DNA of 64,000 bases from an uncultured bacterium (lineage in GTDB: Bacteria; Muiribacteriota; Ozemobacteria; Ozemobacterales; Ozemobacteraceae): positions 700,618-764,617 of the forward strand of contig CALEDQ010000008.1 of the NCBI GenBank assembly GCA_937949615.1, read 5' to 3'. The notes below the pieces were generated by a model that made no database searches, was not told the DNA's origin, and worked only from the letters and a program-made list of their open reading frames with translations. Shown here piece after piece: positions 16,131-63,983 of this stretch (its first letter is position 1; the number at the start of each line of letters is the position of its first letter). The translations under genes were made by a program, and so were the position numbers.

Positions 16131-16173
16131 TTTATTTCTCCATAAAAATAAGAAAATGCAGAAAATTTTTGGA

Positions 16174-16202
16174 AAGGCGGTTAATTATATCCCTTCAGAC
16201 GA
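16174..16202 (-). promoter_or_regulatory. Candidate sigma70 promoter for the ATPase gene
   Basis: Minus strand TTGAAG, 17 nt, TATAAT, overlapping the 3' end of the cyclase gene. GGAG SD lies before the ATPase ATG. Confidence 0.35.
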
Positions 16203-26289: not shown

Positions 26290-26378
26290 AGCATAAACGG
26301 TGATTCTTACAGATTTTGCTTTTAATCCATGCGGTTTATCACTATAATTGCAGCATACAAATCTGTCGGAGGCACACA

Positions 26379-32571: not shown

Positions 32572-32619
32572 TTTTTTATTCAGGTCAGAACCTGCATCTG
32601 CCGATATTATTCCTGAATC

Positions 32620-35600
32620 ATGATAAAGAGAATAATAAAGGCAACGATCCTCCTTGCTTTTCTGCTGCCGGTGCATCTGCCGGCGGCAATGGACTTTATT
32701 TTCGAAGAAAGCATCTCGCAGTCACTGACGCGAATGGAATCTCTCTATACCGCCGGCAAATGGGATGAAGCAATGAATGTCGGGCGCGGTATCATCAAGG
32801 ATGCCCCGAAGGATCACCCGGCAGCCAGGCGCGCTCAGGATCTTATCGTGCTCTCGATCGACGGGCGCAATCACGAAATCCTTGCCAACCAGAGCCGCGA
32901 CCAGCAGAAAAAGCAGCAGGAAACCGCTCAACAGCTGGTAACCGAAGGCAGCAAACTGCTGACCGAAAAAAGTTACCCGGCGGCGGCTGAAAAGTTTGCC
33001 AGAGCTGTGCGTCTGCACGGCGGTGACGCCCAGAGCTACTTTTTGCTGGGATATGCCAGTCTTAAGGCCGACAAGCGCAAAGAAGCCTATAATGCTCTGC
33101 GGCAGTGCCTCAAGCTCAACCCGGCGCATGAGCGGGCCCTGTTTCATATCGCCGGCCTCAGTTATGAATTCAATCACAGCACCGAAGCCGAAGACTATGC
33201 CGCCCGTCTGATCGAGGCCATCGAAAAAAAGATTAACGAATACCGCGACATTTTTCTCGATCAGCGATCAAAAGGCATGAATGATCAGGCGGTGGCAACT
33301 GCCCGCAAAATGGCGGCCCTGCGCAGCAATCTTGCGCAAGCTTCCTTTATGCATGGTGTTCTCACCTATAAGCGCAAAGATTTTAAGGCTGCGGTCGTTT
33401 CGTTCGAAAAAGCTACCAAGCTCAATCCATCTTCTGCTGACAACTGGTTCAGACTCGGCAGTACTTTTCTGCAGCTTAAAGTCTATCACCAGGCGACAGT
33501 CGCCATTGAACAGGCAATTCTGATCAGAGAAACACTGCTCAAGGATCTTGCCGCCAATGCCGGGCGCCTTCTCGATGCCGGTAAAAGCGATGAGGCAGTC
33601 GAGGCCGAGTTGAAAACGCGCAAGCTTAAAGATGAGATTGCCCGTTCCCTTTATGTTCTTGCGATTGCCAATGGCCGCAAAAAAGAGACCGATTCAGCGA
33701 TACGCAATATTGAACGGGCACTCGAACTGAAACCGGATTTTGTTCAGGGGCGTTATACGCGCGCCATTCTTCTCGCCGAAAAGAACTATCTTGAAGAAGC
33801 TCTCGAACAGATGCGGCAGGTGCTGAAAGACAGCCCGCCTAAAAGCGAACAGGCCAAAAAAGCTATCAGAACCATCACCTTTCTGATGGATCAGATTGCC
33901 CGCCGTGATAACCCTTCTGAAGTTGCTGCTGTTGCAAAGACTGAAAAAATGATCGAAGTCGAGCAATATGTCAAGGATATGCCAGGTATCGGCGGCAAAG
34001 AAGCAGAAACCAGGCTTGAAGATGTGTTTCCGAAACTGCGCGAAGTTAATCAGCTTGTGACGATGCGCAACCACGCCGAAGCGGTGCGAAGACTGCTGTA
34101 TCTGCGCACTCAGCACCCTGATATTGCAGAAATTCATGCAATTCTTGGCCACTGTTATATGGAAATGGGGCGAATCGACGATGCGGCAAAATGCTTCGAA
34201 GAAGCTATAGCCGTTCAACCTGATCATGCCGAAGCTCTCAACGGCCTGGCCTACATCATGGCTACCAAAGTCGAAAATCTCGACATGGCGCTTAAATACA
34301 TCAGGCAGGCGTTGGCCATTGACGGACTGCGCCCCGAGTTTTATCACACGCTCGGCTGGGTTCATTTCAAGACCGGCGAAGTACAGAAGGCAATCGACGC
34401 CTTCAGCCGAGCTCTTGAAATCAAGCCGAACTATCTGCTTGCCCGTTACAACCTCGGCCTGGCCAATTACATAACCCAGAACTATCAGGCGGCAATAGCG
34501 GCTTTTAATGCTGTTATCGCCCAGAATCCAGCACATCACAAGGCTCTGCTTTTCAAGTCGATCAGCCTGGCCAAAACTCAGAATGCCGAAGAAGCCATCG
34601 CCACTCTCGAAAATCTGCGTGGCAAGCTCACTGAAAAGTCAGTTCTGCAAAAAGTGGTCGTCGACCTTCATGCAAAGCTGAAATTAGCCTATGAACGCCA
34701 TGCCGAACTGCCGGTACCCGAAATCAAGTCACCGGCACCGATCGAGAAACTGATGGCAGAAGCACAGGCATTCAGAGCCAAAGGACTGGTTACCCGTGCC
34801 AAAGAAAAATATCTTGAATGCCAGCGCCTTGCCCCCGAAAGATTCGAACCTCACTTTGCCCTCGGGCAGATGTATGCCGAAGCCGGTTTGAATCTGCCGG
34901 CTCTGGCCGCCTGGGAAAGAGCAGAAAAACTTAAAACCGATCATTTCCCGCTGCAGATGAGCCTGGGGAAAATGCATCACAAGCTTGGTAAAGCCGAAAA
35001 AGCCAGAGAATACTTTGACCGGGCGCAGGCGCTTAATGAAAAAGACCCTGAACCCCGTTATTATCTGGGTCTGCTTGCCTACGAAGAAAAACGCTTCGAA
35101 TCAGCCGAAAGCTACGCTCTGGCGGCCCTGCGTCTGAAGCCTGATTACTACAAAAGCATGGCACTGCTCGGCATGACCCGTATTCGCCTCAACCGGCTCA
35201 AACCAGCCCGTGATATCTACGAAACTCTTTATGCAAAAGCTCCTGCCGATTCTTCAATCCGCCGCCATGCCCGCAAAAAAATCTGGGAAATTACCAAAAT
35301 GATGGCCCCGGCACAGTATCCATCAGTAGAAGACGCTCTTGAAGTCAAAAACCAGATGGTCAGAAAAGCTACCGATGCCGACCGCAAGGTAGAGGTCAAG
35401 CCACGCCCCGAAGAAGAACTGGCAATTGCCGAATACGGCAAAAACACCATGACTCTCGAAGACAAAATGTGGGTTCTCAAGCAGCTCGAAAGATTCGGCA
35501 ATGTTTCAACACCGACGCCGATTTCACCGCTGCGGCGTGAAGTCACCGCTCAGACTCTTACAAACAGAGACAAACAGTGGGTAGTAAAAAAACTGCAGGG

Positions 35601-36345
35601 TCTCGGTGACCGCAGCAGCAAATATTCTCTGCCGGCTGAACTCAAAGCGGAAAAATTTTCTCTGAAAACCACCGAAAAAAAGGTAGAACGGAAGGCAGAC
35701 CCGGCCGACAGCTTCGTTATCAAAGCACTTGAATCGGCAGAACGCGGTTTCATTACAGAAGCGGTTATCGAGCTCAACAAAGCCCGCCAGGAATATCCGA
35801 AAAACCTCGATATTCTTCTGAACCTCGGTTTTATGCACACTGTCCAGGGCAATTTTAAAGACGCTTTCGAAGCCTACGCCAATGCAACCGTCAGCTACCC
35901 GAAAGAGTCACTCGCCCGTCTGGCTCTCGGTAACCTCTACTGGCTTGGCGGCCAGGCCGACAAAGCCGTTGAACAATGGCGACTGATCAAGGGTCAGCCG
36001 AAACCAGACACACAGTTCAATATTCTTGGGCGCACTGAAAAAATCTGGCAGCGCATGCTTGAAGTCGACCCGATGGATGTCGATGCCCATTCAAATCTTG
36101 GCCTTGTCTACATGTTCTCCGGCGAATATCGCAAGGCTCTCGCCGAGTTTCAGGCAGTCACAAAAATCGAACCTTCGCGGCGCGAACATGAGTTCTATCA
36201 GGCCCAGATCAACGTGCTTATGTATCTGCAGAAAAACAATGCCAGCAACCGCAAAGAAGCACAGAAGATTCTGCAGGGACTGGCGCAGGGTCCCGAAGCA
36301 TTCCCCCATTCAGAAAGGCTGAAAAACTTTGTTGCCAATCTGTAA
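32620..36345 (+). CDS. Large secreted TPR-repeat protein (1241 aa)
   Basis: Signal peptide MIKRIIKATILLAFLLPVHLPAA. Dozens of 34-residue TPR-type repeats (A..Y..Al.l.P....a pattern throughout). Confidence 0.8.
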   Translation: MIKRIIKATILLAFLLPVHLPAAMDFIFEESISQSLTRMESLYTAGKWDEAMNVGRGIIKDAPKDHPAARRAQDLIVLSIDGRNHEILANQSRDQQKKQQETAQQLVTEGSKLLTEKSYPAAAEKFARAVRLHGGDAQSYFLLGYASLKADKRKEAYNALRQCLKLNPAHERALFHIAGLSYEFNHSTEAEDYAARLIEAIEKKINEYRDIFLDQRSKGMNDQAVATARKMAALRSNLAQASFMHGVLTYKRKDFKAAVVSFEKATKLNPSSADNWFRLGSTFLQLKVYHQATVAIEQAILIRETLLKDLAANAGRLLDAGKSDEAVEAELKTRKLKDEIARSLYVLAIANGRKKETDSAIRNIERALELKPDFVQGRYTRAILLAEKNYLEEALEQMRQVLKDSPPKSEQAKKAIRTITFLMDQIARRDNPSEVAAVAKTEKMIEVEQYVKDMPGIGGKEAETRLEDVFPKLREVNQLVTMRNHAEAVRRLLYLRTQHPDIAEIHAILGHCYMEMGRIDDAAKCFEEAIAVQPDHAEALNGLAYIMATKVENLDMALKYIRQALAIDGLRPEFYHTLGWVHFKTGEVQKAIDAFSRALEIKPNYLLARYNLGLANYITQNYQAAIAAFNAVIAQNPAHHKALLFKSISLAKTQNAEEAIATLENLRGKLTEKSVLQKVVVDLHAKLKLAYERHAELPVPEIKSPAPIEKLMAEAQAFRAKGLVTRAKEKYLECQRLAPERFEPHFALGQMYAEAGLNLPALAAWERAEKLKTDHFPLQMSLGKMHHKLGKAEKAREYFDRAQALNEKDPEPRYYLGLLAYEEKRFESAESYALAALRLKPDYYKSMALLGMTRIRLNRLKPARDIYETLYAKAPADSSIRRHARKKIWEITKMMAPAQYPSVEDALEVKNQMVRKATDADRKVEVKPRPEEELAIAEYGKNTMTLEDKMWVLKQLERFGNVSTPTPISPLRREVTAQTLTNRDKQWVVKKLQGLGDRSSKYSLPAELKAEKFSLKTTEKKVERKADPADSFVIKALESAERGFITEAVIELNKARQEYPKNLDILLNLGFMHTVQGNFKDAFEAYANATVSYPKESLARLALGNLYWLGGQADKAVEQWRLIKGQPKPDTQFNILGRTEKIWQRMLEVDPMDVDAHSNLGLVYMFSGEYRKALAEFQAVTKIEPSRREHEFYQAQINVLMYLQKNNASNRKEAQKILQGLAQGPEAFPHSERLKNFVANL

Positions 36346-46143: not shown

Positions 46144-46878
46144 TTAAAGAGGTTTTTCTACTGCAAGACCACATTTACGCGGGTAACGCTCAGACACAGC
46201 GCAGGTTTTGCGAAGAATCAGAAAATTTCTTTCAAACGGTAACTCGGGTGGAGCAAGCCGCAAAATTTCAACATTCTCGACGGCAACAGAAAAAACTGCA
46301 AAGGCATTAACCGATTCTGAAAGCTCCTCGTCAAGCTTCGGACCTTTATAATACAGCGCATAGCCGCCAGTACGGGTCAGAGGCATGGTATATTCAACCA
46401 GAGTTCTGACTGCCGATAATGCCCGGCAGACAACCAGATCGGCCTGCTCTCTGAACTTGGCATCGCGGCCGATCTCTTCTATGCGGGCGTGATGAGTCTC
46501 TATATTGGTAAGACCGGCAGCGGCAGCCATTCTTGCCACAAACTCAACAGACTTCTGCCTGGAGTCGATCGCGACGATCCTGCTGTGCGGCAAAGCCACC
46601 GCCAGCGGTAACGACGGAAACCCGCCACCCGTACCAAGATCAACAATTTTCGCCGATTTCCAGAGTGGAAGATTGAAGCAGACAGGCGCCAGACTGTCGA
46701 GAAAGTGCTTCATTGCCATTTCATGCGGGTCAAATATTTTCGAAACACTTTTATACATAGGGTCGGATAGCATGGCCGATGCAAGCCTGTCGAGCTGCCC
46801 ATACTGCTCTTCAGACAGCCTGATCTTGAGTTTTTCGAGACAGGGAAAAAGAAATTCTCTGATTCTTACCTCATTCAT
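46144..46878 (-). CDS. rsmG: 16S rRNA (guanine527-N7)-methyltransferase
   Basis: SAM motif IVDLGTGGGFPSLPLA. 8-nt overlap with mnmG upstream. Confidence 0.85.
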   Translation of the reverse strand: MNEVRIREFLFPCLEKLKIRLSEEQYGQLDRLASAMLSDPMYKSVSKIFDPHEMAMKHFLDSLAPVCFNLPLWKSAKIVDLGTGGGFPSLPLAVALPHSRIVAIDSRQKSVEFVARMAAAAGLTNIETHHARIEEIGRDAKFREQADLVVCRALSAVRTLVEYTMPLTRTGGYALYYKGPKLDEELSESVNAFAVFSVAVENVEILRLAPPELPFERNFLILRKTCAVSERYPRKCGLAVEKPL

Positions 46879-48760
46879 TGCTTCTACCCCTATTTGTCTG
46901 TCGTTTACGAAGATTCATCAGAATAACTGCCAGATCTGATGCTCTGACCCCGGGAATTCTCGCAAGCGCCCCAACCGTAGCCGGCCTTACCGCCAGAATT
47001 TTCATTCTGGCTTCGCGGCTGACAGCCGCAGGTATAGCCGCAAAGAACTCTTCATCGAGCTCTTCTGCCTGCATGCTTTCACGCAGCGAAAATTCACGTT
47101 CCTGCTGTTCAATATAACCAGAATACTTAATTCGCGCCTCAATCTCCAGAACACCGAGATGATCGAGACCGGAAATTTCCGGGATATAACGGGAAAATCT
47201 GGCCGGAGAAGCATCTGGTCGTCGCAGGAGCTGAGCAAGAGAAACGCTTGAAGCCGGCATTGGGTCTGCGAATTCCGGTAATTGCTCTTTTAACTGAGCT
47301 GGCGTCAAACGAGTTTCTTCTAATCGTTTCTGAATGTCGGCAAGCAGACCATGTCGGGCATTAATACCATTCATCTTGTCAGATGCAAGGGAGCCAAAGT
47401 CGAAAGCTTTTTGCGAAAGCCTCTCTTCGGCGTTGGTCATGCGCAGATTCAGCCTGAAAGGCGAACGTGAAGTAAAAACCCTGTATGGCTCACGAATCCC
47501 GAGGGTGGTAATCTCTTCGACCATAAGCCCGAGATAAGACTGATCGGCATCGAGCACCAGTGGTGTGCGGCCAAGAACGGCGGCAGCCGCGTTGATACCG
47601 GCAAGAATGCCCTGTGCAGCTGCCTCTTCATAGCCAGAGGTGCCATTTATCTGGCCGGCCAGAAAAAGATTCGGAATAGACCTCGACATAAGCGTCGGGT
47701 GCAGGTCAATCGGATCGACGATGTCATACTCGATGCCGTAGCCCGGGCGGGTAATACGCGCGTTTTCGAGCCCCGGCAGAGTTGCAACGTAAGCTTCCTG
47801 AACATCTTCAGGCAGGCTGGTCGAAAGTCCCTGCAGATAAATCTCGTTACTGAACGCCCCTTCGGGTTCAAGAAAAACCTTGTGGGTCTCCTTGTCAGGA
47901 AATTTATTGAGCTTATCTTCGATCGATGGACAATAGCGGGCACCGGTACCGGTTATCAGGCCGGCGATCAAAGCCGAACGCCCGAAGTTTTCTTTGATAA
48001 CCCGGTGCGTTTCTTCTGTAGTGCGGGTAATAAAACACGCCCGACTGGGAAACCGCCTCTCAGCTTTTGACCATAATGAAAATGGCGGAGTTTCCGGGTC
48101 TTCTTCCTGCATTTCGAGACCGGCAAAATTAATCGTGGCAATATCAACCCTCGGTGGGGTACCTGTTTTAAAACGCATAACCGGCAGCCCGATACGCTCA
48201 AGGGCAGCCCCCAGATCGTTGGCAGCCGGCTCCCCTGCCCTGCCGGCAGAAAAACTGACATCACCGATATGGATTTTTCCGCGCAGAAAGGTGCCGGTTG
48301 TAAGAATTACCGCCGGGGCAGACCAGATCTGACCAGAAATTGCCCTGACACCCGCAAGCCTGCCATTTTCAAAATGCAGATCAGAAACCATCGCCTGCAG
48401 AAGCTTTAAATTTGGCTGCAGCATCAGCGACTGCAACATGCGCCGACTGTAAGCCTCTTTATCGGACTGAAAACGATTGGCCTGCACGGCAATCCCTTTT
48501 CGGGTGTTCAGACGCCGTCTCTGAATACTGGTTTCATCGGCGACAATGCCCATTTCTCCGCCGAGAGCATCGACTTCGCGAACCAGCTGGCCTTTACCCT
48601 GGCCACCAATAGACGGGTTACATGGAAGAGCGGCAACCGTGTCGAGATTTATCGTTAAAAGCAGAGTCTGCAGCCCAACACGGGCCGCGGCCAGGGCGGC
48701 TTCACAACCGGCGTGACCGGCGCCAACGACAATAACCTGAAATTCGTTTTTTGCTTTCAC
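46871..48760 (-). CDS. mnmG: tRNA uridine 5-carboxymethylaminomethyl modification enzyme MnmG (copy A)
   Basis: VVGAGHAGCEAALAAAR, PCNPSIGG, GRAGEP, RFKTGTPPRV, RYCPSIEDK and the canonical C-terminal ..VRPATVGALARIPGVRASDLAVIL. Confidence 0.9.
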   Translation of the reverse strand: MKAKNEFQVIVVGAGHAGCEAALAAARVGLQTLLLTINLDTVAALPCNPSIGGQGKGQLVREVDALGGEMGIVADETSIQRRRLNTRKGIAVQANRFQSDKEAYSRRMLQSLMLQPNLKLLQAMVSDLHFENGRLAGVRAISGQIWSAPAVILTTGTFLRGKIHIGDVSFSAGRAGEPAANDLGAALERIGLPVMRFKTGTPPRVDIATINFAGLEMQEEDPETPPFSLWSKAERRFPSRACFITRTTEETHRVIKENFGRSALIAGLITGTGARYCPSIEDKLNKFPDKETHKVFLEPEGAFSNEIYLQGLSTSLPEDVQEAYVATLPGLENARITRPGYGIEYDIVDPIDLHPTLMSRSIPNLFLAGQINGTSGYEEAAAQGILAGINAAAAVLGRTPLVLDADQSYLGLMVEEITTLGIREPYRVFTSRSPFRLNLRMTNAEERLSQKAFDFGSLASDKMNGINARHGLLADIQKRLEETRLTPAQLKEQLPEFADPMPASSVSLAQLLRRPDASPARFSRYIPEISGLDHLGVLEIEARIKYSGYIEQQEREFSLRESMQAEELDEEFFAAIPAAVSREARMKILAVRPATVGALARIPGVRASDLAVILMNLRKRQTNRGRSNE

Positions 48761-50997
48761 TTTTGCAATTGCAGCGCTTTTTCAGCCAGAGACCTGACCG
48801 TTTCATTCGGGTCGGTGGTCAGGCGCTGAAGAAGCTGGAGTGCGTCTGGAGTTTTTTTGCGTGATAACAGCTTGACTGCAGCAATTCTGCAGCTTTCGTC
48901 AGCCAGCTCGGCTGCCTTGTTGATAAGAATCGTCTGGTCATCGCCCATCACGAATGCGAGATCTCTGGCACCCGCTCTTTGATCGTCGATGCTGGCAGAG
49001 CAGAGCTTTGCGTAAATCTCCGCAGACCTTGGCTTGGCAAAAGCCGGCATGCCGGGAATACTGGCCTGAGGAGGAGAAGATACCGGCCTTGCCGGAACAG
49101 ACGGTTTCTGAATACCCGCAGACGGCGTACTGGCAGACGGCAGTCGGCGATCAGGAATGTTCAAAGGTTTCGACTGCATGGCTGAAGATGACGGAGCCGT
49201 CGAAACAGCTGGAACAACCGGGGGTAGAGAAGTTGCAGGTCTGGCAGAGGCAATCGGAGCAACCGGCTGTCTCGGCGCAACCGGCACAGTTACTTGAGAC
49301 GGCGCGTCTTCTACTGGTGGCAAAGATGGCTCGACCGGCGCCAGATCTGGAATCTTCAGACTGCCTGCAGAAGGCAGAGAAGGCTCTGGGGCGGCAGGCG
49401 AAATTTCGGGCAGTACCGGTTCAGGCGCAGATGGGGCTGATGGCCGGGTCGGCTCAACCGGCGAAGAGACTTGCACCGGCGCCACCGGTCGTGGTTGAAC
49501 GGCAGCCGGAGGCGGCTGAACCGGTCTTGGCGGCGCTGCCTGGGGGAATGGTGCGGCCGGTTTCATCTCTTCGCGCATAGGCGTATCTTTGATTTTTTCG
49601 AAAAGCGAAGCCGCAACCTGAGCAACGACCGGGTCAGGATCACCGCAGGCGGCTTTAAGCACCTGACGTGAAGTGTTGTTGTTAATTCTGGCCAGAGCTT
49701 TGAGAACGCTGAGCCTGATACCCTGGTTCGGATCTTTGAGAGCAGCCTTGAGCAGGGTTAAAGATGGCTGATCACCGATTTCTCCGAGGGCAAAAATAAC
49801 ACTGTCGCGCAGCCATACTTCTTGAGATACCAGCATCGAACGAAGGGTGAGAAATGCCTGCTGAAAACCGTTTTTAACAAGATATTTGGCGGCATTGACC
49901 TTAACGCGGTTTTCAGGGTCTTCGAGCAATTGAACGATGTTCTGCTCGCATCCCCTTATGTTCTGTTCCTCGATGACTTCGACGGTATTGGCCCTGACTC
50001 TTGGGTCTTCATCCTGCAGGCAGCGAATCAGAGTTTCAAGGCCGCCTTCGCGGCTGCTTCTGGCAAAAACCTTTACCAGCCCAGACTTAACGATAACATC
50101 CTTTTCTTTGAGCAGAATGCTTTCGAGCATTGCCGGATTGAGTTCGACATCGGGTTCCATGATAATTTTCAACATGAGAAAGCGCCGCTGTGAAGAAAAC
50201 TGCTCGTCTGCGAGCATGAACGGGATCTGTGGCGGAACCCGGCGGTCTTTCAAATTAAACAGCGTCTGCAGAGCCGTCAACGCCACCTCTTCGAGCATGC
50301 TGCGCGCCAGCTGCAGAAGCTGAGTTACATGCCCCGAAGGCTTTTTGACTCCGAGAGTCTTGATATGCTGCAGAAGAGTCGAGATATCGGTGATTTTCTT
50401 AAGATCCGGCAGAGATGGATCGACCGGGTCGTCAAGTTCTGGGGGAGCTGCGGGCACAACGTTCGAGGCTACCGAAGGCTGGGCAGAACCATGAGAAAAG
50501 CTGCCAGATACTGCTGCAGGTGAAGGGGTCGCCGGCAATGGCTGAGAAGGGCGTGGCAAGGTGGCTGGCGATGCACTGGCAGGCATGCTTGGTTGAAAGG
50601 ACCTGGCAGCAGGCGGCAAAGTCTGAGACTGGCCAGGCAGAGGGCCGACCGACGGTTTTACCGGCAAAACCGGAGCCGCCGGCGGATTAACGGCAGGCTG
50701 CTCATCTGGCGGTGCTACCGGTGCTGGCGGTGCTACTGGCGCCGACGGTGCCACAAAAGCAGGCTCTGGAATCTGCAACTTTGCTTCACCATCGCCACTC
50801 AGCTTTGCCAATGCCGCCTGGGCAGCATTGCGAACGCTCTCGTCAGAATCGCCGAGAACCTTCTGAATACAGGCAATTTTTTCGTTGACAGGCATGGCAG
50901 GCAGATTAACCAGTTGTTCAATGGACATGCATCGAACCTCAGCAGAAATTGAGCGGAGATTCTGAATAATCAATTCCTGACGTTTCTTGTTAATCAT
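48757..50997 (-). CDS. HEAT-repeat protein with two long proline-rich linkers
   Basis: HEAT/PBS-lyase-like units (DSDESVRNAAQAAL, DEDPRVRANTVEVI, DPENRVKVNAAKYL, DPNQGIRLSVLKAL, DPDPVVAQVAASL, DPNETVRSLAEKAL). They are separated by P/A/S/V-rich stretches (APVAPPAPVAPP..). ATGA overlaps at both ends with the mnmG copies. Confidence 0.75.
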   Translation of the reverse strand: MINKKRQELIIQNLRSISAEVRCMSIEQLVNLPAMPVNEKIACIQKVLGDSDESVRNAAQAALAKLSGDGEAKLQIPEPAFVAPSAPVAPPAPVAPPDEQPAVNPPAAPVLPVKPSVGPLPGQSQTLPPAARSFQPSMPASASPATLPRPSQPLPATPSPAAVSGSFSHGSAQPSVASNVVPAAPPELDDPVDPSLPDLKKITDISTLLQHIKTLGVKKPSGHVTQLLQLARSMLEEVALTALQTLFNLKDRRVPPQIPFMLADEQFSSQRRFLMLKIIMEPDVELNPAMLESILLKEKDVIVKSGLVKVFARSSREGGLETLIRCLQDEDPRVRANTVEVIEEQNIRGCEQNIVQLLEDPENRVKVNAAKYLVKNGFQQAFLTLRSMLVSQEVWLRDSVIFALGEIGDQPSLTLLKAALKDPNQGIRLSVLKALARINNNTSRQVLKAACGDPDPVVAQVAASLFEKIKDTPMREEMKPAAPFPQAAPPRPVQPPPAAVQPRPVAPVQVSSPVEPTRPSAPSAPEPVLPEISPAAPEPSLPSAGSLKIPDLAPVEPSLPPVEDAPSQVTVPVAPRQPVAPIASARPATSLPPVVPAVSTAPSSSAMQSKPLNIPDRRLPSASTPSAGIQKPSVPARPVSSPPQASIPGMPAFAKPRSAEIYAKLCSASIDDQRAGARDLAFVMGDDQTILINKAAELADESCRIAAVKLLSRKKTPDALQLLQRLTTDPNETVRSLAEKALQLQK

Positions 50998-52901
50998 CTG
51001 GTTTCCTCATGCCTTTCTTGTCTATCGCCATCTTCAGAAAGAACCGATAAAAGAATAGCAATTTCCGACCGCGTAAGGCAATGTTTTCTTACCATCTGAC
51101 TCAGATCGTCGAATCTGGAAGAACCAAGAATCTGCCTGGCCTGGTCTGATAACGCATGTAGTCGATGATCAGAGGTTTCCAGCGGCAGCCTGACTTTTTC
51201 AAGAAAACTTGTCTGAACAATCTTTTCTGCTTCGCGATCTGCATAACCCCGATATTTTATCTCGGTTTCGAGCGCATAAACTTCATCGACCGCAGTCAAC
51301 CTTGAATTTTCTGGCTGCTGCAGAAGATCCATTACATTGTTATAGGTGACCCCCGGGCGCTGCAGAAGTTCTGCTCCCGAAGCAGGTTTTTTAAGATCGC
51401 CGGTTGCCAGTCTGGCAAGTCGTTCACGCGCCTCGCCACTAGGCAGAAGACTCAGAGCCGAAAGCCGGGTGATTTCCCCTTCGATTCGAGCCGACCATTC
51501 AAAAATCGTAGAAAACCGTTTCTGATCGACAAGCCCAATACGAAAGCCATCGGCTGCCAGACGCCGTTCTGCGGAATCATCGCGCAAGGTCAGCCTGAAT
51601 TCTGCATGGCCCGGTGTAATACGGTATGGCTCAGGTTTTTCCCAGGTTGAGAGGTCGTCGACAAGCACTCCCAGATAACTGCGTGTTCTGGATGGCCAGT
51701 AGGGGGCCTGTTTTCTCAGGGCAAGAACTGCGTTAATACCCGCAATAAGGCCCTGGCCGGCAGCTTCTTCATAGCCAGAAGTACCATTGAGCTGCCCGGC
51801 GGTATAAAGCCCCTCGATGACTCGGCTTTCCATGGTTTTTCTGATCTGGCCGGGTGCCAGTGCATCGTATTCGATTGCATAGCCATATCTGAGAATCACG
51901 GCATTTTCAAGGCCGGCAACGCTGCCAACGATATCCTGTTGAGCTGCAGGCGGCATTCCGGTGGTAAGCCCCTGCAGGTAAAGTTCCTGCGATTCCCAGC
52001 CTTCGGGCTCAACAAAAACCTGGTGCTTCACCATATCAGGAAATTTGATGATTTTGCGATCGATTGAAGGACAATGTTTCGGGCCATCATCGGTTATGTT
52101 CTCAAGAACAAGGGGACTCTCGCTCAGATTTCTTCTGACAGCCTCAACCGAGCGCTCATCGGTAAAAGTCAGATAACAGGAAATCTGCTTCTCATAGCGC
52201 CTGAGACGGTTTTCCCAGAGAAACCCGCCGGCATCGACGTCACCGGGCAATTCAGTCATAAGATTGAGGTCGACCGAACTTTTAAGAATTCTTGGCGGGG
52301 TAGCAGTCTGCAGGCGGCGAAGCTTGACTCCGGCCGCGGTAAGAGAATCAGACAATCCGACAGCCGGGCTCTGATTCTGAGGTCCCCCAGGCCAGGTTGC
52401 CCGCCCGAGAATAATACGGCTGTTAAGATAAGTACCAGAGGTCAGAATAAGCTTTTCGCAGCCAAACACAAGACCGGTTTCGAGTCTGACACCTTTTACA
52501 CGGCCTGATTCAACAAGCAGACCAGTGACATGCCCCTGCCGAAGAGTCAGATTCGGAGTAGCAAACAACGTCTGCAGCATTCTCTGCCGATAGAGATATT
52601 TGTCTGCCTGAGCCCTTCTTGAACGAACTGCCGGCCCTTTCGAAGTGTTGAGCCATTTCATCTGCACACAGGTTTCATCGATACATCGTGGCATTTCACC
52701 GCCAAGAGCACCGATTTCTCTGACCAGATGACCTTTGCCCGGCCCACCGATACTTGGGTTACAGGGCATCAAAGCAACCGTCGAAATATTCATCGTTATC
52801 AGCAGAGTCTCTGCTCCAAGTCTGGCAGCAGCCAGAGCAGCTTCACAACCGGCATGGCCGGCTCCGATTACGATTACTGCATATTCTTTTTTCTGACTCA
52901 T
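50994..52901 (-). CDS. mnmG: MnmG paralog (copy B, divergent tRNA-binding and C-terminal segments)
   Basis: VIGAGHAGCEAALAAAR, PCNPSIGG, NTSKGPAVRSRRAQADK and KHCPSIDRK are conserved. GRAGEP is replaced by GGPQNQ. The C-terminal helical motif is divergent (RFDDLSQMVRKHCLTRSEIAILL). Confidence 0.85.
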   Translation of the reverse strand: MSQKKEYAVIVIGAGHAGCEAALAAARLGAETLLITMNISTVALMPCNPSIGGPGKGHLVREIGALGGEMPRCIDETCVQMKWLNTSKGPAVRSRRAQADKYLYRQRMLQTLFATPNLTLRQGHVTGLLVESGRVKGVRLETGLVFGCEKLILTSGTYLNSRIILGRATWPGGPQNQSPAVGLSDSLTAAGVKLRRLQTATPPRILKSSVDLNLMTELPGDVDAGGFLWENRLRRYEKQISCYLTFTDERSVEAVRRNLSESPLVLENITDDGPKHCPSIDRKIIKFPDMVKHQVFVEPEGWESQELYLQGLTTGMPPAAQQDIVGSVAGLENAVILRYGYAIEYDALAPGQIRKTMESRVIEGLYTAGQLNGTSGYEEAAGQGLIAGINAVLALRKQAPYWPSRTRSYLGVLVDDLSTWEKPEPYRITPGHAEFRLTLRDDSAERRLAADGFRIGLVDQKRFSTIFEWSARIEGEITRLSALSLLPSGEARERLARLATGDLKKPASGAELLQRPGVTYNNVMDLLQQPENSRLTAVDEVYALETEIKYRGYADREAEKIVQTSFLEKVRLPLETSDHRLHALSDQARQILGSSRFDDLSQMVRKHCLTRSEIAILLSVLSEDGDRQERHEETR

Positions 52902-57777: not shown

Positions 57778-57806
57778 ACTATATACCATAACCTTAAGTT
57801 TGTCAA
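57778..57806 (-). promoter_or_regulatory. Sigma70 promoter for rpmH-rnpA
   Basis: Minus strand consensus TTGACA, 17 nt, TATAGT. It lies about 40 nt upstream of the rpmH ATG. Confidence 0.55.
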
Positions 57807-57871: not shown

Positions 57872-60800
57872 TCATCCCTGGTACAATTCTGTGTTCAAAG
57901 CAAAAGCCTCGACCGCCTGTTTCTTTCCTTTAATTACCAGATCTGGCAATCTGACAGCATTTCTGGCATATTCCTCACCATCGGCAGACGCTTTCTGCAA
58001 CGCCGCCCACGTAGCTGAGCAGAGAACAATTTCTTTACCGGTATCAAGAGAACAAAGCCGGGCAGCAAGATTAACCACATCACCGATAACTGCTTGTTCA
58101 AGCCTGGTTGTTTCTGAACCAATAATTCCGGATCTGACCGTTCCAGTAGTGATACCGGCTCTAATTTTTATAGATCCGTCAAGAAATTTATGCCGACGCA
58201 GACGATCCAGAACCACAAGAACTGATTTTACAGCCGCCCCAGCCTTTGTGCCAGCCTCATCCTCTGAATCGACAAAAAAGGTTACCATCGCCTTTTCTGC
58301 AATGAACTTGCTGACCTCACCACCATTCTGCTTAACACTGCTGCAAACAGCTGAAAAGAACCGATTAAGCTCCGCAACCATCTGTGCAGCGGCATTTTCT
58401 TTAAAAGCGTCGGTGACTCCGGCCACCCTGATGAACATGATTACCGCTTTTCGCGACTGCAAAGCCCCCTTTCGATCAATCTTTTCTGAAGCAGTTATTG
58501 TCTGAAGCGCCCCATCGGAAACAAATTTGCGCAAAATCCGTCCCGTCTCGACATCAGCTGCCACCTGATTGAAGCTTCTGGCAATCTGGCAGAATTCCTC
58601 ATCAGACCAGTCTTCATCCATCCTGACCGAGAGATCTCCATCTATGAGCTTTTCTGCAGTTTCAGCAAAGCATTTAACCGGAACAACGAAGCCTGATGCC
58701 ATTTTCCAGCCAATGTAACCACAGAGAATAAAAATAAGCACCATCGACAGTCGCAGTTCTGATTGAAAACGCCGATAATTTTGAATGTTACCAGATACCG
58801 GAATCAGCGCCGAAAGCTGATAATCAACCAAATCAGAACCGGGGAAAGTGGCAAAGAACCACTTTTGCTCTTCCCAGTCGAGTTCAAGCACCAGAGGCTC
58901 GGCCGCATAACTGCTCAAATGAGCCATCAAGGCAATTTTATCGGGCAGCAGTCCGTAAACAAAACGCATCAGACCAAACTTGCCGCCAGTGGCGACACGC
59001 CCGAAAGGAGCCTTCAAATACCATCCGGGAGCGTTCTTTTTCTTGATCAGCCAGATTGGCTGAAACGAGCTTCGATAGAAATTGGCCACCCAGCGGTTGA
59101 AAGCAACACACTCGAGCGAAGGAGGGTAAACAGCGACAAGCAAAGCACCATTTACTGATGATTCTTCCCGCAGGAAGCGATGATAAAGAAATGCCTGGTC
59201 ACCAAACCCGCTAAATTTTGTCAGATGTGTGTAGGTATGTGCCATGGCAGGAAATATCTCAGGCAACAGAACACTGCTCATAATTCCAAGAACCTCTTCA
59301 GCCTGAGCCTTGAGCAGTACATCTTTTTCATCAGCTTTGCCAAGAGCAGGATTCATCGCCTGAAGAGTTGGCAGAAAAATACTGGCACCCAGATGCTGAA
59401 AGAATTTCTCTTCAGAACTGTTGCTGCCGGCAAACCGCGATACGATATGGCCCCGATCGCCTACCAGCAGAACATTTTTCATGACCACTCCATTGGCAAT
59501 AAAAGTGTCGAGAAAACTGCCAAGCCATTCTTTTTTGTCGTAGTCAGACATTTCACCAAGTTTGATTTCAGCTTCATGACTTTCTGCGTGATGAATCAGA
59601 TTCTCTGCAAGAGAACAGATACGAGTTCTAAAGAGTTTGATCGACTTATCGAAAGCATCGAGAGCTTCTTCGCTTTCAGACCTTATTCTCTGCAGCGAAG
59701 AATTCATGGTCGAATCCAGATAACGCTCAAGGCTTACTGTTGCAAGAAGGAACGGTGGAAGAAGAAAAATTGAAACAAGAGCTGCAAGCTGTGCTCTAAG
59801 ACCGACCCGAATTTTTTTGCGCATGATCAGGTGATTACCGCAGAAGTAAACAATCAGGGCAAACCAGGCAAGCAGAAGACTGAAAACAGTTTTTCGCAAC
59901 AGCTTTATCGAAGGCATCTCGTCCAAAGCCGGCCTGGCAATGACAATCCTGCGATTACTCAGATCAGACAGTTCTGTCTGCACATAGAGCCACTTTCCTG
60001 TTCGCACAATGCCTCCGGCATTAAGCCTTCTCGCTTCGGTAAGCTCGGGGTATTTATCAAAGTCACGGCTTTGAATCCATCCGGAACGCCTTTTACCCTC
60101 TCTTGGCGGCGAAAGCGCAATACTGGCCCCAAGACGGCCAAAATTATCGACAAGCCCCTTTGCAAAACGTTCTCCACAGGCCCGGCGATAATTATCTTCA
60201 TCAAACACAATGACAACGAGAGCCGCAATCTGGCTCAATCCCTGGGCATTACCGGCGGTATCGGGTTTAATTGCCGACATAAGGTTTTCTGACTCTGCAT
60301 ATCTGCCATTTTTCAGAATCGGAAACCACATGAAATGAAACTGACGGTTGTCGATAAAACAAGGCTGGAAACACCTGACAGCAGAGCAGATAAACCTTGT
60401 CATCTCCGCATCGGCTTTATCGTCGAGATAGCTTTTGAATTTTCTACTGCTCTCTTCTCTAAATTCATAGGAAATGTTCATATCCGCCAGATAAGACAAT
60501 CCTCTGTAAGCCAGAAGACGCAAAATTTCTGTTTCAATCCCATCGTTTTCGCCAGAAGAAAATTTTTCCTGAAGCTCATTTCCGACAATAAGCATATTTG
60601 CAGGTTGCGAGGCTACCGTCAGCAGCGTCCAGCGGTATCGGCCAGGCAAAGATACTGATCCGGAACTTAAAACGGTGGCAAAATCAGCAATCGTATCTTC
60701 CTGAATGCCGGCTTTTTCAATTATTCCCTTAAAGCTTTCCGTAAGCTCCGCCGCAATGTCGAAGCCGACATGAAGCTTTCTTAGAGCTGCTCGCTGAGCA

Positions 60801-60970
60801 AACTTCAAGTCATTCAACAAGTATCTTCTAATAACCGAATCGGTTTGCTCGGCACTGGCCGCGGCATAGCGTTTGAAACTCGCCCAGACTGACAGAGATA
60901 TCAACATGGCGGCAAGTATTACTGCCGCAGCCAGCATAAAACCAGTCTTATTTTTTTCAGGATTCAGCAA
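57872..60970 (-). CDS. Membrane receptor with HAMP and a class III cyclase-homology domain that lacks both metal-binding Asp residues ('C2-like' half)
   Basis: Same 4-TM, double-ectodomain layout as its neighbour. HAMP (FVVPVKCFAETAEKLIDGDLSV..). The CHD reads IMFIRVAGVT (Asp->Arg) and SKFIAEKAMVTF (Gly-Asp->Ala-Glu). It keeps the Lys of KFI and the Asn/Arg of IGDVVNLAARL. Confidence 0.8.
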   Translation of the reverse strand: MLNPEKNKTGFMLAAAVILAAMLISLSVWASFKRYAAASAEQTDSVIRRYLLNDLKFAQRAALRKLHVGFDIAAELTESFKGIIEKAGIQEDTIADFATVLSSGSVSLPGRYRWTLLTVASQPANMLIVGNELQEKFSSGENDGIETEILRLLAYRGLSYLADMNISYEFREESSRKFKSYLDDKADAEMTRFICSAVRCFQPCFIDNRQFHFMWFPILKNGRYAESENLMSAIKPDTAGNAQGLSQIAALVVIVFDEDNYRRACGERFAKGLVDNFGRLGASIALSPPREGKRRSGWIQSRDFDKYPELTEARRLNAGGIVRTGKWLYVQTELSDLSNRRIVIARPALDEMPSIKLLRKTVFSLLLAWFALIVYFCGNHLIMRKKIRVGLRAQLAALVSIFLLPPFLLATVSLERYLDSTMNSSLQRIRSESEEALDAFDKSIKLFRTRICSLAENLIHHAESHEAEIKLGEMSDYDKKEWLGSFLDTFIANGVVMKNVLLVGDRGHIVSRFAGSNSSEEKFFQHLGASIFLPTLQAMNPALGKADEKDVLLKAQAEEVLGIMSSVLLPEIFPAMAHTYTHLTKFSGFGDQAFLYHRFLREESSVNGALLVAVYPPSLECVAFNRWVANFYRSSFQPIWLIKKKNAPGWYLKAPFGRVATGGKFGLMRFVYGLLPDKIALMAHLSSYAAEPLVLELDWEEQKWFFATFPGSDLVDYQLSALIPVSGNIQNYRRFQSELRLSMVLIFILCGYIGWKMASGFVVPVKCFAETAEKLIDGDLSVRMDEDWSDEEFCQIARSFNQVAADVETGRILRKFVSDGALQTITASEKIDRKGALQSRKAVIMFIRVAGVTDAFKENAAAQMVAELNRFFSAVCSSVKQNGGEVSKFIAEKAMVTFFVDSEDEAGTKAGAAVKSVLVVLDRLRRHKFLDGSIKIRAGITTGTVRSGIIGSETTRLEQAVIGDVVNLAARLCSLDTGKEIVLCSATWAALQKASADGEEYARNAVRLPDLVIKGKKQAVEAFALNTELYQG

Positions 60971-63900
60971 GACTTTTCACCTCAAAAAATCTGGAATCAC
61001 CTAGAATTGGAGCATATTCGAATCTGCTGACAGAATTTTTGAGATCTTCAGTGACTACGATACCTGTAAACGCACCTAATTTTGAGGCCGTTTCCGCATC
61101 TTCAGCCACATGCAGGGTATCGCCCGCAATCGTATAGTCAAGCCTTACTCCTGAATTTCCCATGATTCCGGCAAGGATTTCACCGCGGGCAAGCCCGACA
61201 CCGATGTCAACCACGAACAAACCCGCTGCAATCCGTTCTTGCTGAATGCGCTGATGCAATCTTTTCATCTCGATCGCTGCATTCATAGCAGAACTACACA
61301 TCGGCCCGGCGTCTTCATAAAAAATAGCCCAAACCGCGTCGCCGACAAAGCGGTCGATAACACCGCCGTTTTTTTCTATTACCGCTGCCATGGCGCTCAA
61401 ATGATGATTAACCATATCAAAAACATCTTCTGCCCGAAATTCTTCTGAAATAGTTGTGAAAGAGCGGATATCGGAAACAAGAACAATCGCTTTTCTTATT
61501 GTGCCGGCACCGGCCTTGATGAAGTTACTCGCGAGAACCTGATTGACAGCCTGTGGTGCAACAAATCTCTTTATTTTTTCCCGTTCCCTTATCCAGTCAG
61601 ACATTTTTTGAATAGACCCGGCAGTAGCAGCAATTTCATCTTCTCTACCAGCAAGTCCATCTGCAGAGATATAACCGGTCCCAATTTTTTCAAGCGCGGG
61701 AATGAATGATCGTAAAGGGTTACCTATCCAGATAGAAACGAATATTGAACCAGAAATAACGACAACCAGCAAAAGCAGCATGGTAATCACCATGCTGAAC
61801 TGTTCGAAAAAAATCATCATTTCTACGTGATAAGCAGGTAATCTGGCGACGAACACATATCCCGGCATGCGTTGCGATGGCACCATTATACTGGCATAAT
61901 CAGCATCAAAAACATAGGCAGTCCTCTCAGCCGGCAACTGAGTCAACTTGTCAAAACCACCGGTATGGCCGGTTGCCTCAACAAGTTTTGGCTGTCCACC
62001 AGTGTTTTTATAAACCGCAATATCTGGAGAATAACCCGCAGCTCTGCGATAGTTAACTGCCTCCTGCGGCAGACTCAACCGCAAAATTTTCTGAAACATG
62101 GTTTCGGGGCGTAAAAGAACCATGAATACGGCAAACGGCCTTCCAGCAAGATTTATCTGATGCAGATAGCTCAAGGCAAAATCGTTGCCGGTAAAAACAT
62201 CCGATACGCTCTCAAATCTCTCTTTTGCAAGACCGAAATTCTCCTGAACCCTGAAGTCTGAAGTTGTCGTTATTGCAGGCACCCTTCTCTCAGCGTCGGA
62301 ATATCTTGAAGAAGGTGAATATTTCTGGTAAAGATCAGCATCGACCTGCTTCAGATACTTATCAAGTATCGACCCGAACAAGGCCCGGCATGACCTGCGA
62401 TAACTGGCAGAACTGTCTTTCAGAAAAGAACTGAAGCACCAGCCACCCTGAGTGACCAGGATAACTGCCGCAGGGTCAATACCCCGACGCTGGAATTCAG
62501 AACGTGCAAAATCCAGAAGCTTTGTATCTAATTCTGGTTCTGTCGGCAATTTGAAAGCTTCATTGATAATTTGTCTATCAGAAGTGATTTTGGCGGCAGC
62601 GTCAGAAAAAACCTCTGAAACTCCTGCCATCTCAGATTCAACCTGAAGCACCAGCTGATGCAGGTCACGATGCAGCCCAGAAATTTTAACTTCACGGAGA
62701 TCCTGAAGGGTTGCCGCAAGAGAACCAATGGTGAGCCCGGCCGGAAAAGCTGCAAAAGCAGAAAACCACAAAAGAACCCTGATCTGAATTCTTATCGTTG
62801 GCAGACGGCGAAAGATAAGGCTTCTGATCAGAAAAATCGACCAGATGCCGGACAAAATGGCAAAATACCATTTAACCGCCTCCTGACGAGGCGAGAGCGG
62901 AATCTGGGGCATTTCTCCAAGCAACAGCACAGCAAAGCCGCTGGTTGGATCTGAATAACATATGCGTGCGATTTTGCTGCCGAGCGGAAAAGCTTTCCCC
63001 ATAAGTTCTACAGGCAGCTGCAGGTGTGACTGTTCGCTATTCAGAGACTTTTCCGGAAAGTTTTTTTGAAAAAAGTTCCAGATATCTGCAACTGTCCGGG
63101 CATCTGCAAACATTGGATGCACAATCAGAGATTTATCAGAATCTTTCCGGTAATTCAACATGGCCGGCCAGCATGTTCCATCAGCCTTGACATGTCGACT
63201 GACAACAGACCAGCCACTGACAATCCTTTCTGCCAGGCCATTTTCTCTCGAAAAGCTGACAGGCAGCAGCATAAAAAAACCGGCGCGGGCTTTCCCTCCT
63301 TCCGGCTTCAACATCATTTCCCAGGTAAAATAATAATTGCGACCCTGGAAAATTACCGGAACCGGCTTGAGGCGAAAATCTGGCAGAAACATCTCAATAA
63401 AAGCCATTTTGCCGAAAAGAGTTCGAATGCGCTGTTCCCAGTTGCTTCCAGACAATTCCGATGTTCCATTTTCAACATGATCAACTATCTGCCTGAATAA
63501 TTGCCGAAAAAGATAGCCAGAAACGCGGCGATCAGTGCAATTCATCGCCCATTCACCGTTTTTCGGAAAAAACTGCATGATTATCGGCCGGTCTTTTTCT
63601 TTTTGAAAAAGCAGTTCAGCTGCCTGTTCAAGCGCCAGCTGATAATCGGAAGTTTTTGCAGCCAGCGCCTGACTGGTATTAAAATACTCGATGGCCATTT
63701 CACGACACCAGAACTCAGGCGAAGTTGCCTGAAACATACGCTCGGCCAGAGCGTCGTTCTTTTTGAACCAACCGGAAAATATCTGGCGGCGAGCCCAGAC
63801 GTCTTCCCCGTCAGGGTGCCAGTCCCATGCAATAATCAAACCAGGCGCCAGACTGAGAAGAAAAATCATCAACCAGCTGTAATAGTGGTTGAAAGACATG

Positions 63901-63983
63901 TCAGACCGTTGCCTGCCGTTAACTGCGTCAGAACTCATCTGATTTTTATTCCCTTTAAAATGTCGAGCCCTCTGCTGCGGCAA
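60957..63983 (-). CDS. Membrane receptor with HAMP and a class III cyclase-homology domain that keeps the metal Asp residues but lacks Lys/Asn/Arg ('C1-like' half)
   Basis: The CHD reads VLVSDIRSFT and DRFVGDAVWAIF, so both Asp are present and the specificity Lys is Arg. AGDTLHVAEDAE replaces the canonical GDtVNvAsRlE (Asn->His, Arg->Asp). 14-nt overlap with the downstream cyclase gene. Confidence 0.8.
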   Translation of the reverse strand: MPQQRARHFKGNKNQMSSDAVNGRQRSDMSFNHYYSWLMIFLLSLAPGLIIAWDWHPDGEDVWARRQIFSGWFKKNDALAERMFQATSPEFWCREMAIEYFNTSQALAAKTSDYQLALEQAAELLFQKEKDRPIIMQFFPKNGEWAMNCTDRRVSGYLFRQLFRQIVDHVENGTSELSGSNWEQRIRTLFGKMAFIEMFLPDFRLKPVPVIFQGRNYYFTWEMMLKPEGGKARAGFFMLLPVSFSRENGLAERIVSGWSVVSRHVKADGTCWPAMLNYRKDSDKSLIVHPMFADARTVADIWNFFQKNFPEKSLNSEQSHLQLPVELMGKAFPLGSKIARICYSDPTSGFAVLLLGEMPQIPLSPRQEAVKWYFAILSGIWSIFLIRSLIFRRLPTIRIQIRVLLWFSAFAAFPAGLTIGSLAATLQDLREVKISGLHRDLHQLVLQVESEMAGVSEVFSDAAAKITSDRQIINEAFKLPTEPELDTKLLDFARSEFQRRGIDPAAVILVTQGGWCFSSFLKDSSASYRRSCRALFGSILDKYLKQVDADLYQKYSPSSRYSDAERRVPAITTTSDFRVQENFGLAKERFESVSDVFTGNDFALSYLHQINLAGRPFAVFMVLLRPETMFQKILRLSLPQEAVNYRRAAGYSPDIAVYKNTGGQPKLVEATGHTGGFDKLTQLPAERTAYVFDADYASIMVPSQRMPGYVFVARLPAYHVEMMIFFEQFSMVITMLLLLVVVISGSIFVSIWIGNPLRSFIPALEKIGTGYISADGLAGREDEIAATAGSIQKMSDWIREREKIKRFVAPQAVNQVLASNFIKAGAGTIRKAIVLVSDIRSFTTISEEFRAEDVFDMVNHHLSAMAAVIEKNGGVIDRFVGDAVWAIFYEDAGPMCSSAMNAAIEMKRLHQRIQQERIAAGLFVVDIGVGLARGEILAGIMGNSGVRLDYTIAGDTLHVAEDAETASKLGAFTGIVVTEDLKNSVSRFEYAPILGDSRFFEVKSLAES

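Follow-up and report, generated by a model that had tools for sequence, protein, structure and literature searches.

Can two adjacent bacterial receptor genes, each encoding only part of a cyclase active site, together specify a single enzyme? One-site heterodimeric class III cyclases, namely the transmembrane adenylyl cyclases of mammals (tmAC) and soluble guanylyl cyclase (sGC), are regarded as eukaryotic, and the locus described here suggests otherwise. It lies in a 64,000-nucleotide (nt) stretch of contig CALEDQ010000008.1 (assembly GCA_937949615.1), referred to below as the window. By the names attached to its close homologues, the window belongs to Candidatus Riflebacteria (Ozemobacteraceae/Rifleibacterium), a group known only from metagenome-assembled genomes (MAGs). 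Its minus strand carries two intact long open reading frames (ORFs), gene B upstream (60957..63983) and gene A downstream (57872..60970). Both encode receptor-type class III cyclases, each with four transmembrane (TM) helices, two ectodomains of ~320 amino acids, a HAMP-like linker and a cyclase homology domain (CHD). From their sequences we consider it highly probable that B and A assemble into one heteromeric receptor cyclase, with adenylate cyclase as its most likely activity. Judged in the same way, the pair belongs to a family in which the two modules are either split over two genes, as here, or joined in one chain of ~2,000 amino acids with eight TM helices.

Division of catalytic residues between A and B

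Both ORFs, and every motif quoted from them in a first-pass annotation of this DNA, were found on the minus strand. The two CHDs scored above the Pfam PF00211 gathering score of 21.9 bits (49.3 bits for A and 34.8 bits for B), and A and B queries matched solved cyclases in the PDB at 1e-12 and 1e-19. A canonical paralogue, C (16181..19252, minus strand), which has the same layout of four TM helices, two ectodomains, HAMP and CHD, scored 95 bits. All seven catalytic residues are present in C, which served as the reference copy. Catalytic positions of A and B were mapped in four ways, by HMMER alignment to OaPAC (5x4t) and to CyaB (3r5g), by MAFFT alignment with C and by hmmalign to the CHD profile, with concordant results.

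The CHD of B (60960..61496, minus strand; residues numbered by the 1008-residue form) carries the metal-binding Asp pair, D838 (Asp1) and D882 (Asp2), and the specificity Thr, T951. Arg (R878) stands in place of the substrate Lys, His (H958) in place of the transition-state Asn and Asp (D962) in place of the transition-state Arg; the KGK Lys is absent. This is the pattern that the first-pass annotation had read by eye for the Asp pair, Lys, Asn and Arg, and all alignments agreed with it. The CHD of A (57875..58456, minus strand) retains K888 as substrate Lys, N967 and R971 as transition-state Asn and Arg, and the lysines of the KGK motif (K1014/K1016), with Ala (A960) at the specificity-Thr site. 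It had been described as the mirror image of B, having lost both metal-binding residues. This holds for Asp1, which is R848, and for the retained Lys, Asn and Arg, but the Asp2 site holds a conservative Glu (E892) and there is no wholesale loss. The proposed check by alignment to a profile and to solved cyclases placed no Asp at the two metal positions of A and no Asn or Arg at the corresponding sites of B. The KGK lysine is a seventh position with a reciprocal pattern between A and B. Neither protein has the self-sufficient homodimeric set, that is, the Asp pair, Lys, Asn and Arg in one chain.

In class III cyclases the CHDs are arranged head to tail, with C1 giving the metal-binding Asp pair and C2 the substrate and transition-state residues; of the two sites in a C1/C2 pair one is active and the other a pseudo-site, and homodimers of C2 show no activity (PMC4174876). 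We propose that B and A work in the same manner. The two genes would be co-transcribed, and A is probably translationally coupled to B by way of an overlapping start and a Shine-Dalgarno motif that lies within the 3' end of gene B. The HAMP-like linkers and transducer helices of the two proteins would pair in parallel and their CHDs would pack head to tail. B would then give D838 and D882 to a shared site to which A would give K888, N967, R971 and the KGK Lys, and the heterodimer would have exactly one catalytic site. The second, pseudo-symmetric site, formed by R848/E892 of A and R878/T951/H958/D962 of B, would be degenerate and may be structural or allosteric; the invariant Arg and Thr that B places in this pocket hint at a kept ligand or structural role. 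A homodimer of either A or B would be inactive or nearly so.

Conservation, gene pairing and single-chain relatives

A homologue search in an index of 5.8 billion proteins found ~9 close homologues of A and about a dozen of B, and the reciprocal pattern was followed across ~14 A and ~15 B orthologues. In A orthologues down to 45% identity, the Lys, the Glu at Asp2, the Asn, the Arg and the KGK motif were invariant and the Asp1 site was R, K or I. In B orthologues down to ~50% identity, Asp1, Asp2, the Arg at the Lys site and the Thr were invariant; the Asn site was H or Q and the Arg site D or E. Between clades, CHD identity was 49–50% for A and 63–72% for B, and linker identity was ~64% (the HAMP-like linker of B was also ~64% identical across B orthologues). 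The most variable region was ectodomain 1 of A (28–30% identity between clades), ectodomain 2 of A reaching 54–57%. As the retained residues are invariant and the degenerate sites drift, it appears that the Lys, Asn and Arg of A and the Asp pair of B are in use and the other sites are not. In a homodimer of A, an unchanging Asn/Arg/KGK set would serve no purpose.

These data bear on the possibility that one or both proteins are dead pseudo-cyclases, which signal or serve as scaffolds in the form of homodimers without cyclic nucleotide synthesis. The complete catalytic set is found in neither A nor B, and degenerate CHDs are known as regulatory modules in eukaryotes. However, dead domains should not hold exactly complementary residues invariant over long divergence, and the same partition of residues recurs in the 67 fused and 76 single proteins described below. 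We consider this explanation very improbable.

The pairing of the genes is conserved together with the residues. All of the independent two-gene loci that were typed (14/14) had complementary partners in overlapping or abutting genes, which answers the first-pass proposal to search related genomes for the gene pair and the reciprocal substitutions: both are conserved. In loci of close orthologues that span both genes, B is directly followed by A, and the adjacency, overlap and synteny of A and B persist across lineages down to ~32% identity. The C2-like gene overlaps its C1-like partner in L018, L021, L022, L023, L024 and L025. A split pair in reversed order, C2-like then C1-like, was seen at L026 (5001-10912) and is still complementary. 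Scanning metagenomes with the A profile added one locus, and a word-index search with the CHD only gave mostly canonical fragments.

A different division of labour would be a weakly active B homodimer, in which Arg, His and Asp stand in for Lys, Asn and Arg, with A as an inhibitory or regulatory partner. B does keep both Asp residues and the Thr, its exchange of Lys for Arg is conservative, and the diverged B orthologue at L018 has the Asn and Arg. We nevertheless give this proposal hardly any weight: the Arg site is acidic in all B orthologues of the window's clade, the KGK Lys is gone, and the full and conserved C2-type set of A would be left unexplained.

The decisive evidence for the pairing of B with A comes from single-chain relatives. 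When the A alignment was used as a profile to search 1.84 billion representatives exhaustively, 109 clusters (50% identity) matched at E ≤ 1e-30. Among the best 150 of the profile search (50% clustering) there were 67 two-CHD proteins of ~1,600–2,400 amino acids, and both CHDs of each were typed residue by residue. The N-terminal CHD had Asp1 in 66/67 and Asp2 in 67/67 proteins. Its other sites were mostly degenerate, with Lys in 16/67 (Arg in 50), Thr in 27/67, Asn in 7/67, Arg in 4/67 and the KGK Lys in 2/67. The C-terminal CHD had Lys, Thr and Asn in 67/67 each, Arg in 66/67 and the KGK Lys in 58/67; Asp1 was found in 2/67 (else G, A, S, T or Q) and Asp2 in 36/67 (Glu in 28). The division that places the Asp pair on one side and Lys, Asn and Arg on the other was thus found in 14 split loci and 67 fusions. 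Fused relatives are annotated HAMP-CHD-HAMP-CHD, and hydropathy, where checked, pointed to roughly two modules of four TM helices each; for protein P0170 eight helices were predicted. One fused protein, P0188, has the modules in reversed order, C2-like first and C1-like second.

We compared the pair with the fused protein P0066 by BLASTP. B matched its N-terminal half, ectodomains included (25% over 860 amino acids, E = 1e-66), and A matched its C-terminal half (24% over 808 amino acids, E = 1e-44). The cross matches, B with the C-terminal and A with the N-terminal half, were far weaker and limited to the C-terminal HAMP/CHD region. By these alignments the fusions and the A/B pair are in a classical Rosetta-stone relation, with the module order as in the gene pair. 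The 76 single-CHD matches to the A profile were also C2-like, with Asp1 in 2/76 and Asn and Arg in 76/76, and every one of them for which genomic context was obtained has an overlapping C1-like partner. We also asked whether the pair could be a frameshifted fused gene and rejected this. The stop/start overlaps vary among lineages and are kept in independent assemblies, and P0066 has, between its first CHD and the following TM helix, a linker of ~85–110 amino acids that has no counterpart in the split pair.

Taken together, conservation in orthologues and the fused relatives show that the reciprocal pattern is under selection, beyond chance. A and B could still pair mainly with canonical paralogues such as C, acting as modulators that turn a two-site homodimer into a one-site heterodimer. 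C matches A and B in topology and in the spacing from TM4 to Asp1 (107 residues in all three), A and B are each closer to C (28% and 36% identity) than to each other (22%), and A with C or B with C would likewise have one complete site. Two points speak for B and A as each other's partners instead. Their genes stay adjacent, overlapping and syntenic to ~32% identity, whereas C lies 38 kb off beside unrelated genes. In addition, the fusions join a B-like to an A-like module; two fully canonical CHDs occur in only 1/67 (P0091). Pairing with C as the main arrangement is therefore unlikely in our view, though it deserves more weight than the two proposals above. The reciprocal residues, their selective conservation, the gene pairing and the fusions favour an obligate C1/C2-like heterodimer of B and A with one complete site, which is how the first-pass annotation had interpreted the reciprocal degeneracy.

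The combination of Lys and Thr is of the ATP type and characteristic of class IIIb. It is found in the ancestral state of A and in all fused C2-like domains, which makes cAMP the likely product of the heterodimer. Confidence in this is lower for the window itself, since its A clade has Ala at the Thr site (A960, in the motif QAVIGD); more diverged A orthologues have Thr.

The degenerate pocket showed a pattern of its own. A basic residue at the C2-like Asp1 site (10 pairs) and one at the C1-like Asn site (31 pairs) were never found in the same pair (Fisher p = 0.005, a statistic that ignores phylogeny). This exclusion may come from a cross-subunit contact in the degenerate pocket. A salt bridge from the basic Asp1 site of A to the acidic Arg site of B was also considered and was kept as a weak lead only, the Rifleibacterium orthologue having Ile at the Asp1 site.

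Family members with a named organism all belong to Riflebacteria, except for one MAG labelled Clostridiales. A neighbour-joining tree with parsimony, built without support values and including some "single" proteins that may be truncated, tentatively indicates repeated transitions between split and fused states and possibly a fused ancestor. On one Riflebacteria contig (L020:386-19870) three fused double-cyclase genes lie in tandem (2140, 2130 and 2125 amino acids), each with the order HAMP-CHD-HAMP-CHD and a C1-like followed by a C2-like domain, which indicates massive paralogue expansion.

Gene boundaries, sensor modules and neighbourhood

The longest ORF of B encodes 1008 amino acids, and its likely start is the ATG at 63938, which gives a protein of 993 amino acids (P0011). 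A has 1032 amino acids from a TTG or 1021 from an ATG at 60937. At the B/A junction (60957..60983, minus strand) the Shine-Dalgarno-like motif GAGGTG (60983..60978) sits within conserved Glu-Val codons of B and is separated by a 7-nt spacer from the TTG (60970..60968); the TGA stop of B follows at 60959..60957. Similar motifs precede 17/25 genes of the window. The reading frame of A opens ahead of the stop of B, and every lineage has candidate starts (ATG/GTG/TTG) for which the overlap with the end of B is 14–23 nt. L001/L011 lack the GAGGT(G) that was found 7–9 nt 5' of the overlapping A start in the window, L004, L006, L008 and L010. We favour the TTG because of the motif 7 nt upstream and the overlapping starts in orthologues. 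The 14-nt overlap given in the first-pass annotation is thus probable. It exists with the TTG at 60970 and not with the ATG at 60937, which was chosen by the gene caller of the source assembly and lies 19 nt past the B stop; the genes are adjacent under either start. Downstream, a near-consensus sigma-70-type promoter (TTGACA-17-TATAGT, 11/12) was found at 57778..57806 (minus strand), between the stop of A and rnpA. A therefore appears to close its transcription unit, and the promoter suggests that rnpA-yidC-jag-mnmE is transcribed apart from the cyclase pair.

Hydropathy analysis gave the same order for A, B and C, namely TM1, ~320 amino acids, a TM2/TM3 hairpin, ~320 amino acids, TM4, linker and CHD. 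With equal spacing from TM4 to the CHD, B and A are also compatible as partners. In B, ectodomain 1 (62868..63821, minus strand; residues ~55–372) extends from TM1 to the TM2/TM3 hairpin and ectodomain 2 (61794..62723, minus strand; residues ~421–730) from TM3 to TM4. The corresponding parts of A are ectodomain 1 at 59906..60883 (residues ~30–355) and ectodomain 2 at 58757..59725 (residues ~416–738), also on the minus strand. The first-pass claim that both proteins have the same double-ectodomain layout therefore stands for topology but not for sequence likeness: in BLASTP only the last TM helix, the linker and the CHD of A and B could be aligned. A profile comparison of A and B reached collinearly into ectodomain 2, at low confidence. 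Since the likeness is confined to the C-terminal part and a weak signal in ectodomain 2, the heterodimer would join four different ectodomains.

The linker of A, consisting of HAMP and cyclase-transducer helix (58457..58675, minus strand; GRILRKFVSDGALQTI), matched Pfam HAMP at E = 0.006, below the cutoff, and also matched NCBIfam histidine-kinase HAMP regions. C matched Pfam HAMP at 1.9e-8. In B, the HAMP-like linker with its cyclase-transducer helix (61497..61727, minus strand; includes EREKIKRFVAPQAV) gave no significant match, yet it is collinear with histidine-kinase HAMP regions and aligns with the HAMP and linker of both C and A. As for C itself, its surroundings (13152..19252, minus strand) hold a P-type cation ATPase gene and no partner gene; C shows that the architecture of four TM helices and two ectodomains also exists in presumably homodimeric form in this genome.

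Pfam scans of the six ectodomains at E = 10 gave no meaningful match and no Cache match. We then turned to AlphaFold2 monomer models, which were built from shallow alignments and used for fold assignment only, the CHD of B and ectodomain 2 of A being unreliable. The ectodomains of the B model, ectodomain 1 among them, had a predicted local distance difference test score (pLDDT) of mostly ~60–88. Foldseek matched the B model, with the ectodomains not told apart, to dCache (double PDC) ligand-binding domains from chemoreceptors and kinases (Tlp3, TlpQ, McpH, PctA, DctB) with probability 1.00 and TM-scores of ~0.4–0.5, which suggests that at least one B ectodomain has a dCache-like alpha/beta fold. 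The CHD of the A model matched CyaC, CyaB and RhGC (TM-scores of 0.65–0.77), and sGC beta chains were also among its fold matches.

Several points weigh against the heterodimer of B and A as proposed here. The support comes from sequence comparison, and the monomer models are weak, with a mean pLDDT of 64 for B (its CHD below 50) and 54 for A. Nor is B degenerate without exception across the family, since both Asn and Arg are retained in one diverged orthologue, that of L018. The Ala at the specificity-Thr site of A in this clade makes the choice of substrate less certain. C has a linker of equal length and could pair with A or B. Finally, gene overlap and translational coupling hinge on a TTG start that the source annotation passed over.

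The pair forms the tail of a conserved five-gene cluster, of which the upstream part lies beyond the window end (64000). The order is a MoxR-type AAA+ ATPase, a protein of 274–314 amino acids without Pfam match, a membrane protein of 699–704 amino acids with TgpA_N and transglutaminase core, B and A (L013:6006-10004, L001:4012-8004, L004:1047-5039, L018:1-3050 and L021:50-4036). In most of these loci the stop of the TgpA gene overlaps the start of B by 4 nt, and the cluster persists in L021 although the downstream genes differ. A bifidobacterial PFNA cluster also couples MoxR-DUF58-Tgm with a signalling kinase (PMC8430577). In a second clade of split pairs (L022:4114-12922 and L025:2098-11070) the pair is directly followed by a fusion of gamma-glutamyltranspeptidase and transglutaminase core (~765 amino acids) and then by a Secretin_N protein. 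Two independent clades of the pair are thus linked to transglutaminase-core proteins.

The window contains another transglutaminase-core module at 26316..36345 (plus strand). There, a pair of neighbouring DUF3857 paralogues, of which the first has a transglutaminase core and DUF3858 as well, precedes a Wzy_C O-antigen-ligase-like/TPR protein and a TPR protein of 1241 amino acids. Three tandem overlapping genes of ~660 codons at 4190..10153 (minus strand) encode a CarboxypepD_reg domain and a right-handed beta-helix, two of them also with fn3 and purple-acid-phosphatase-N domains, and their products are probably secreted or surface paralogues. At 46871..52901 (minus strand) two GidA/MnmG-like genes flank a HEAT-repeat gene encoding 746 amino acids (48757..50997). 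The first (46871..48760, minus strand) matched PF01134 at E = 1e-152, and the second (50994..52901, minus strand) was typed via the annotation of the identical locus L013.

Relation to known cyclases

Bacterial class III cyclases are described as homodimerising, and the fusion that gave rise to tmAC has been placed in an early eukaryote (Schultz 2022, PMC9552081). Our literature search found no natural bacterial two-gene or single-chain asymmetric membrane cyclase, although older speculation on mycobacterial heterodimers was not covered and such absence is no proof. This agrees with the first-pass remark that a bacterial two-gene version is not a described paradigm, and A/B is no singleton but part of a sizeable family. 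On balance we favour the view that Riflebacteria hold a lineage of asymmetric C1/C2-type cyclases that is independent of eukaryotes and comprises at least 109 clusters (50% identity). It would include coupled two-gene heterodimers and eight-TM single chains, with up to four ectodomains per catalytic unit, of which at least one is modelled as dCache-like, and a retained degenerate pocket that may be allosteric.

If this is true, the description of bacterial class III cyclases as homodimers needs qualifying, and a prokaryotic model would be at hand for asymmetry, membrane-domain sensing and the second site of tmAC-like enzymes. The one-site solution was apparently reached many times in one phylum, in separate and fused states and in both gene orders. 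This would offer a natural series for the division of functions between duplicated catalytic domains and their later fusion or separation, and a simple system, expressible in E. coli, for the role of a degenerate second site. Needing two different sensor chains for one active site would amount to a built-in coincidence detector. There is also a warning for annotation: the names "adenylate/guanylate cyclase domain-containing protein" and "HAMP domain-containing protein" may hide subunits that, by their residues, would be unable to work alone.

The nearest bacterial systems are homodimeric. HAMP-linked class IIIb cyclases (Rv1319c/Rv3645 type, and C) share the TM sensor, HAMP, transducer helix and IIIb CHD with A and B, but have six or seven catalytic residues in every chain (typed for C and P0026–P0030), which A and B do not. 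Rv1625c, the Cya protein of M. tuberculosis, is likewise a bacterial membrane class III cyclase with active sites across the dimer interface; unlike the A/B pair it is a natural homodimer of class IIIa with two equivalent sites and a 6TM anchor (PMC9552081, PMC9433096). Heterodimers of Rv1625c are artificial. Guo et al. (2001) reportedly found that engineered point mutants show no activity by themselves when either the Asp residues or the Asn/Arg set is missing, and that the two kinds of mutant complement one another. By analogy, the A/B pair looks like a natural counterpart of these complementing mutants.

Among eukaryotic systems, sGC consists of class III alpha and beta subunits that are encoded by separate genes and heterodimerise obligately; one of its two sites is catalytic and the other degenerate. 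It differs from A/B in being soluble and GTP-specific, with a haem-NOX/PAS/coiled-coil sensor, whereas A and B are membrane receptors with Lys/Thr residues of the ATP type. Chytrid NeoR with RGC1/RGC2 resembles A/B in that clustered two-gene obligate heterodimers feed two sensor modules into one catalytic core, but the sensors are rhodopsins (PMC8815786). Moreover, RGC1/RGC2 keep all catalytic residues, and their heterodimerisation has been ascribed to other regions and not to reciprocal loss (PMC8815786).

The closest likeness is to tmAC, the class IIIa pseudoheterodimer with the order TM1-C1-TM2-C2. There C1 gives the two metal-binding Asp residues and C2 the Lys, Asn, Arg and a KGK-type Lys, one active site is accompanied by a degenerate pocket (as predicted for A/B), the C1-like part comes before the C2-like part, and each catalytic domain has its own membrane module ahead of it (PMC4174876). 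In contrast, A/B are two polypeptides (a fused bacterial chain in relatives), are IIIb-like with Thr for Asp, and combine large ectodomains and HAMP-like linkers with 4+4 TM helices in place of 6+6; there is no G-protein or forskolin biology for A/B. The class IIIb mark, Thr or Ser in place of Asp as partner of the substrate Lys, is Thr in B, in C and in 67/67 fused C2-like domains. The features of class IIIa tmAC are not found, the second specificity position being Thr or Ala and each module having four TM helices. The best PDB matches of A and B were the bacterial class IIIb-type enzymes OaPAC, CyaB and bPAC, mammalian C2 giving a weak match (1e-3) to A only. By sequence, A/B is placed outside the class IIIa tmAC lineage because of the Thr, the four TM helices per module, the HAMP-like linker and these bacterial IIIb-type matches. 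Most likely the asymmetry of A/B arose independently of that of tmAC.

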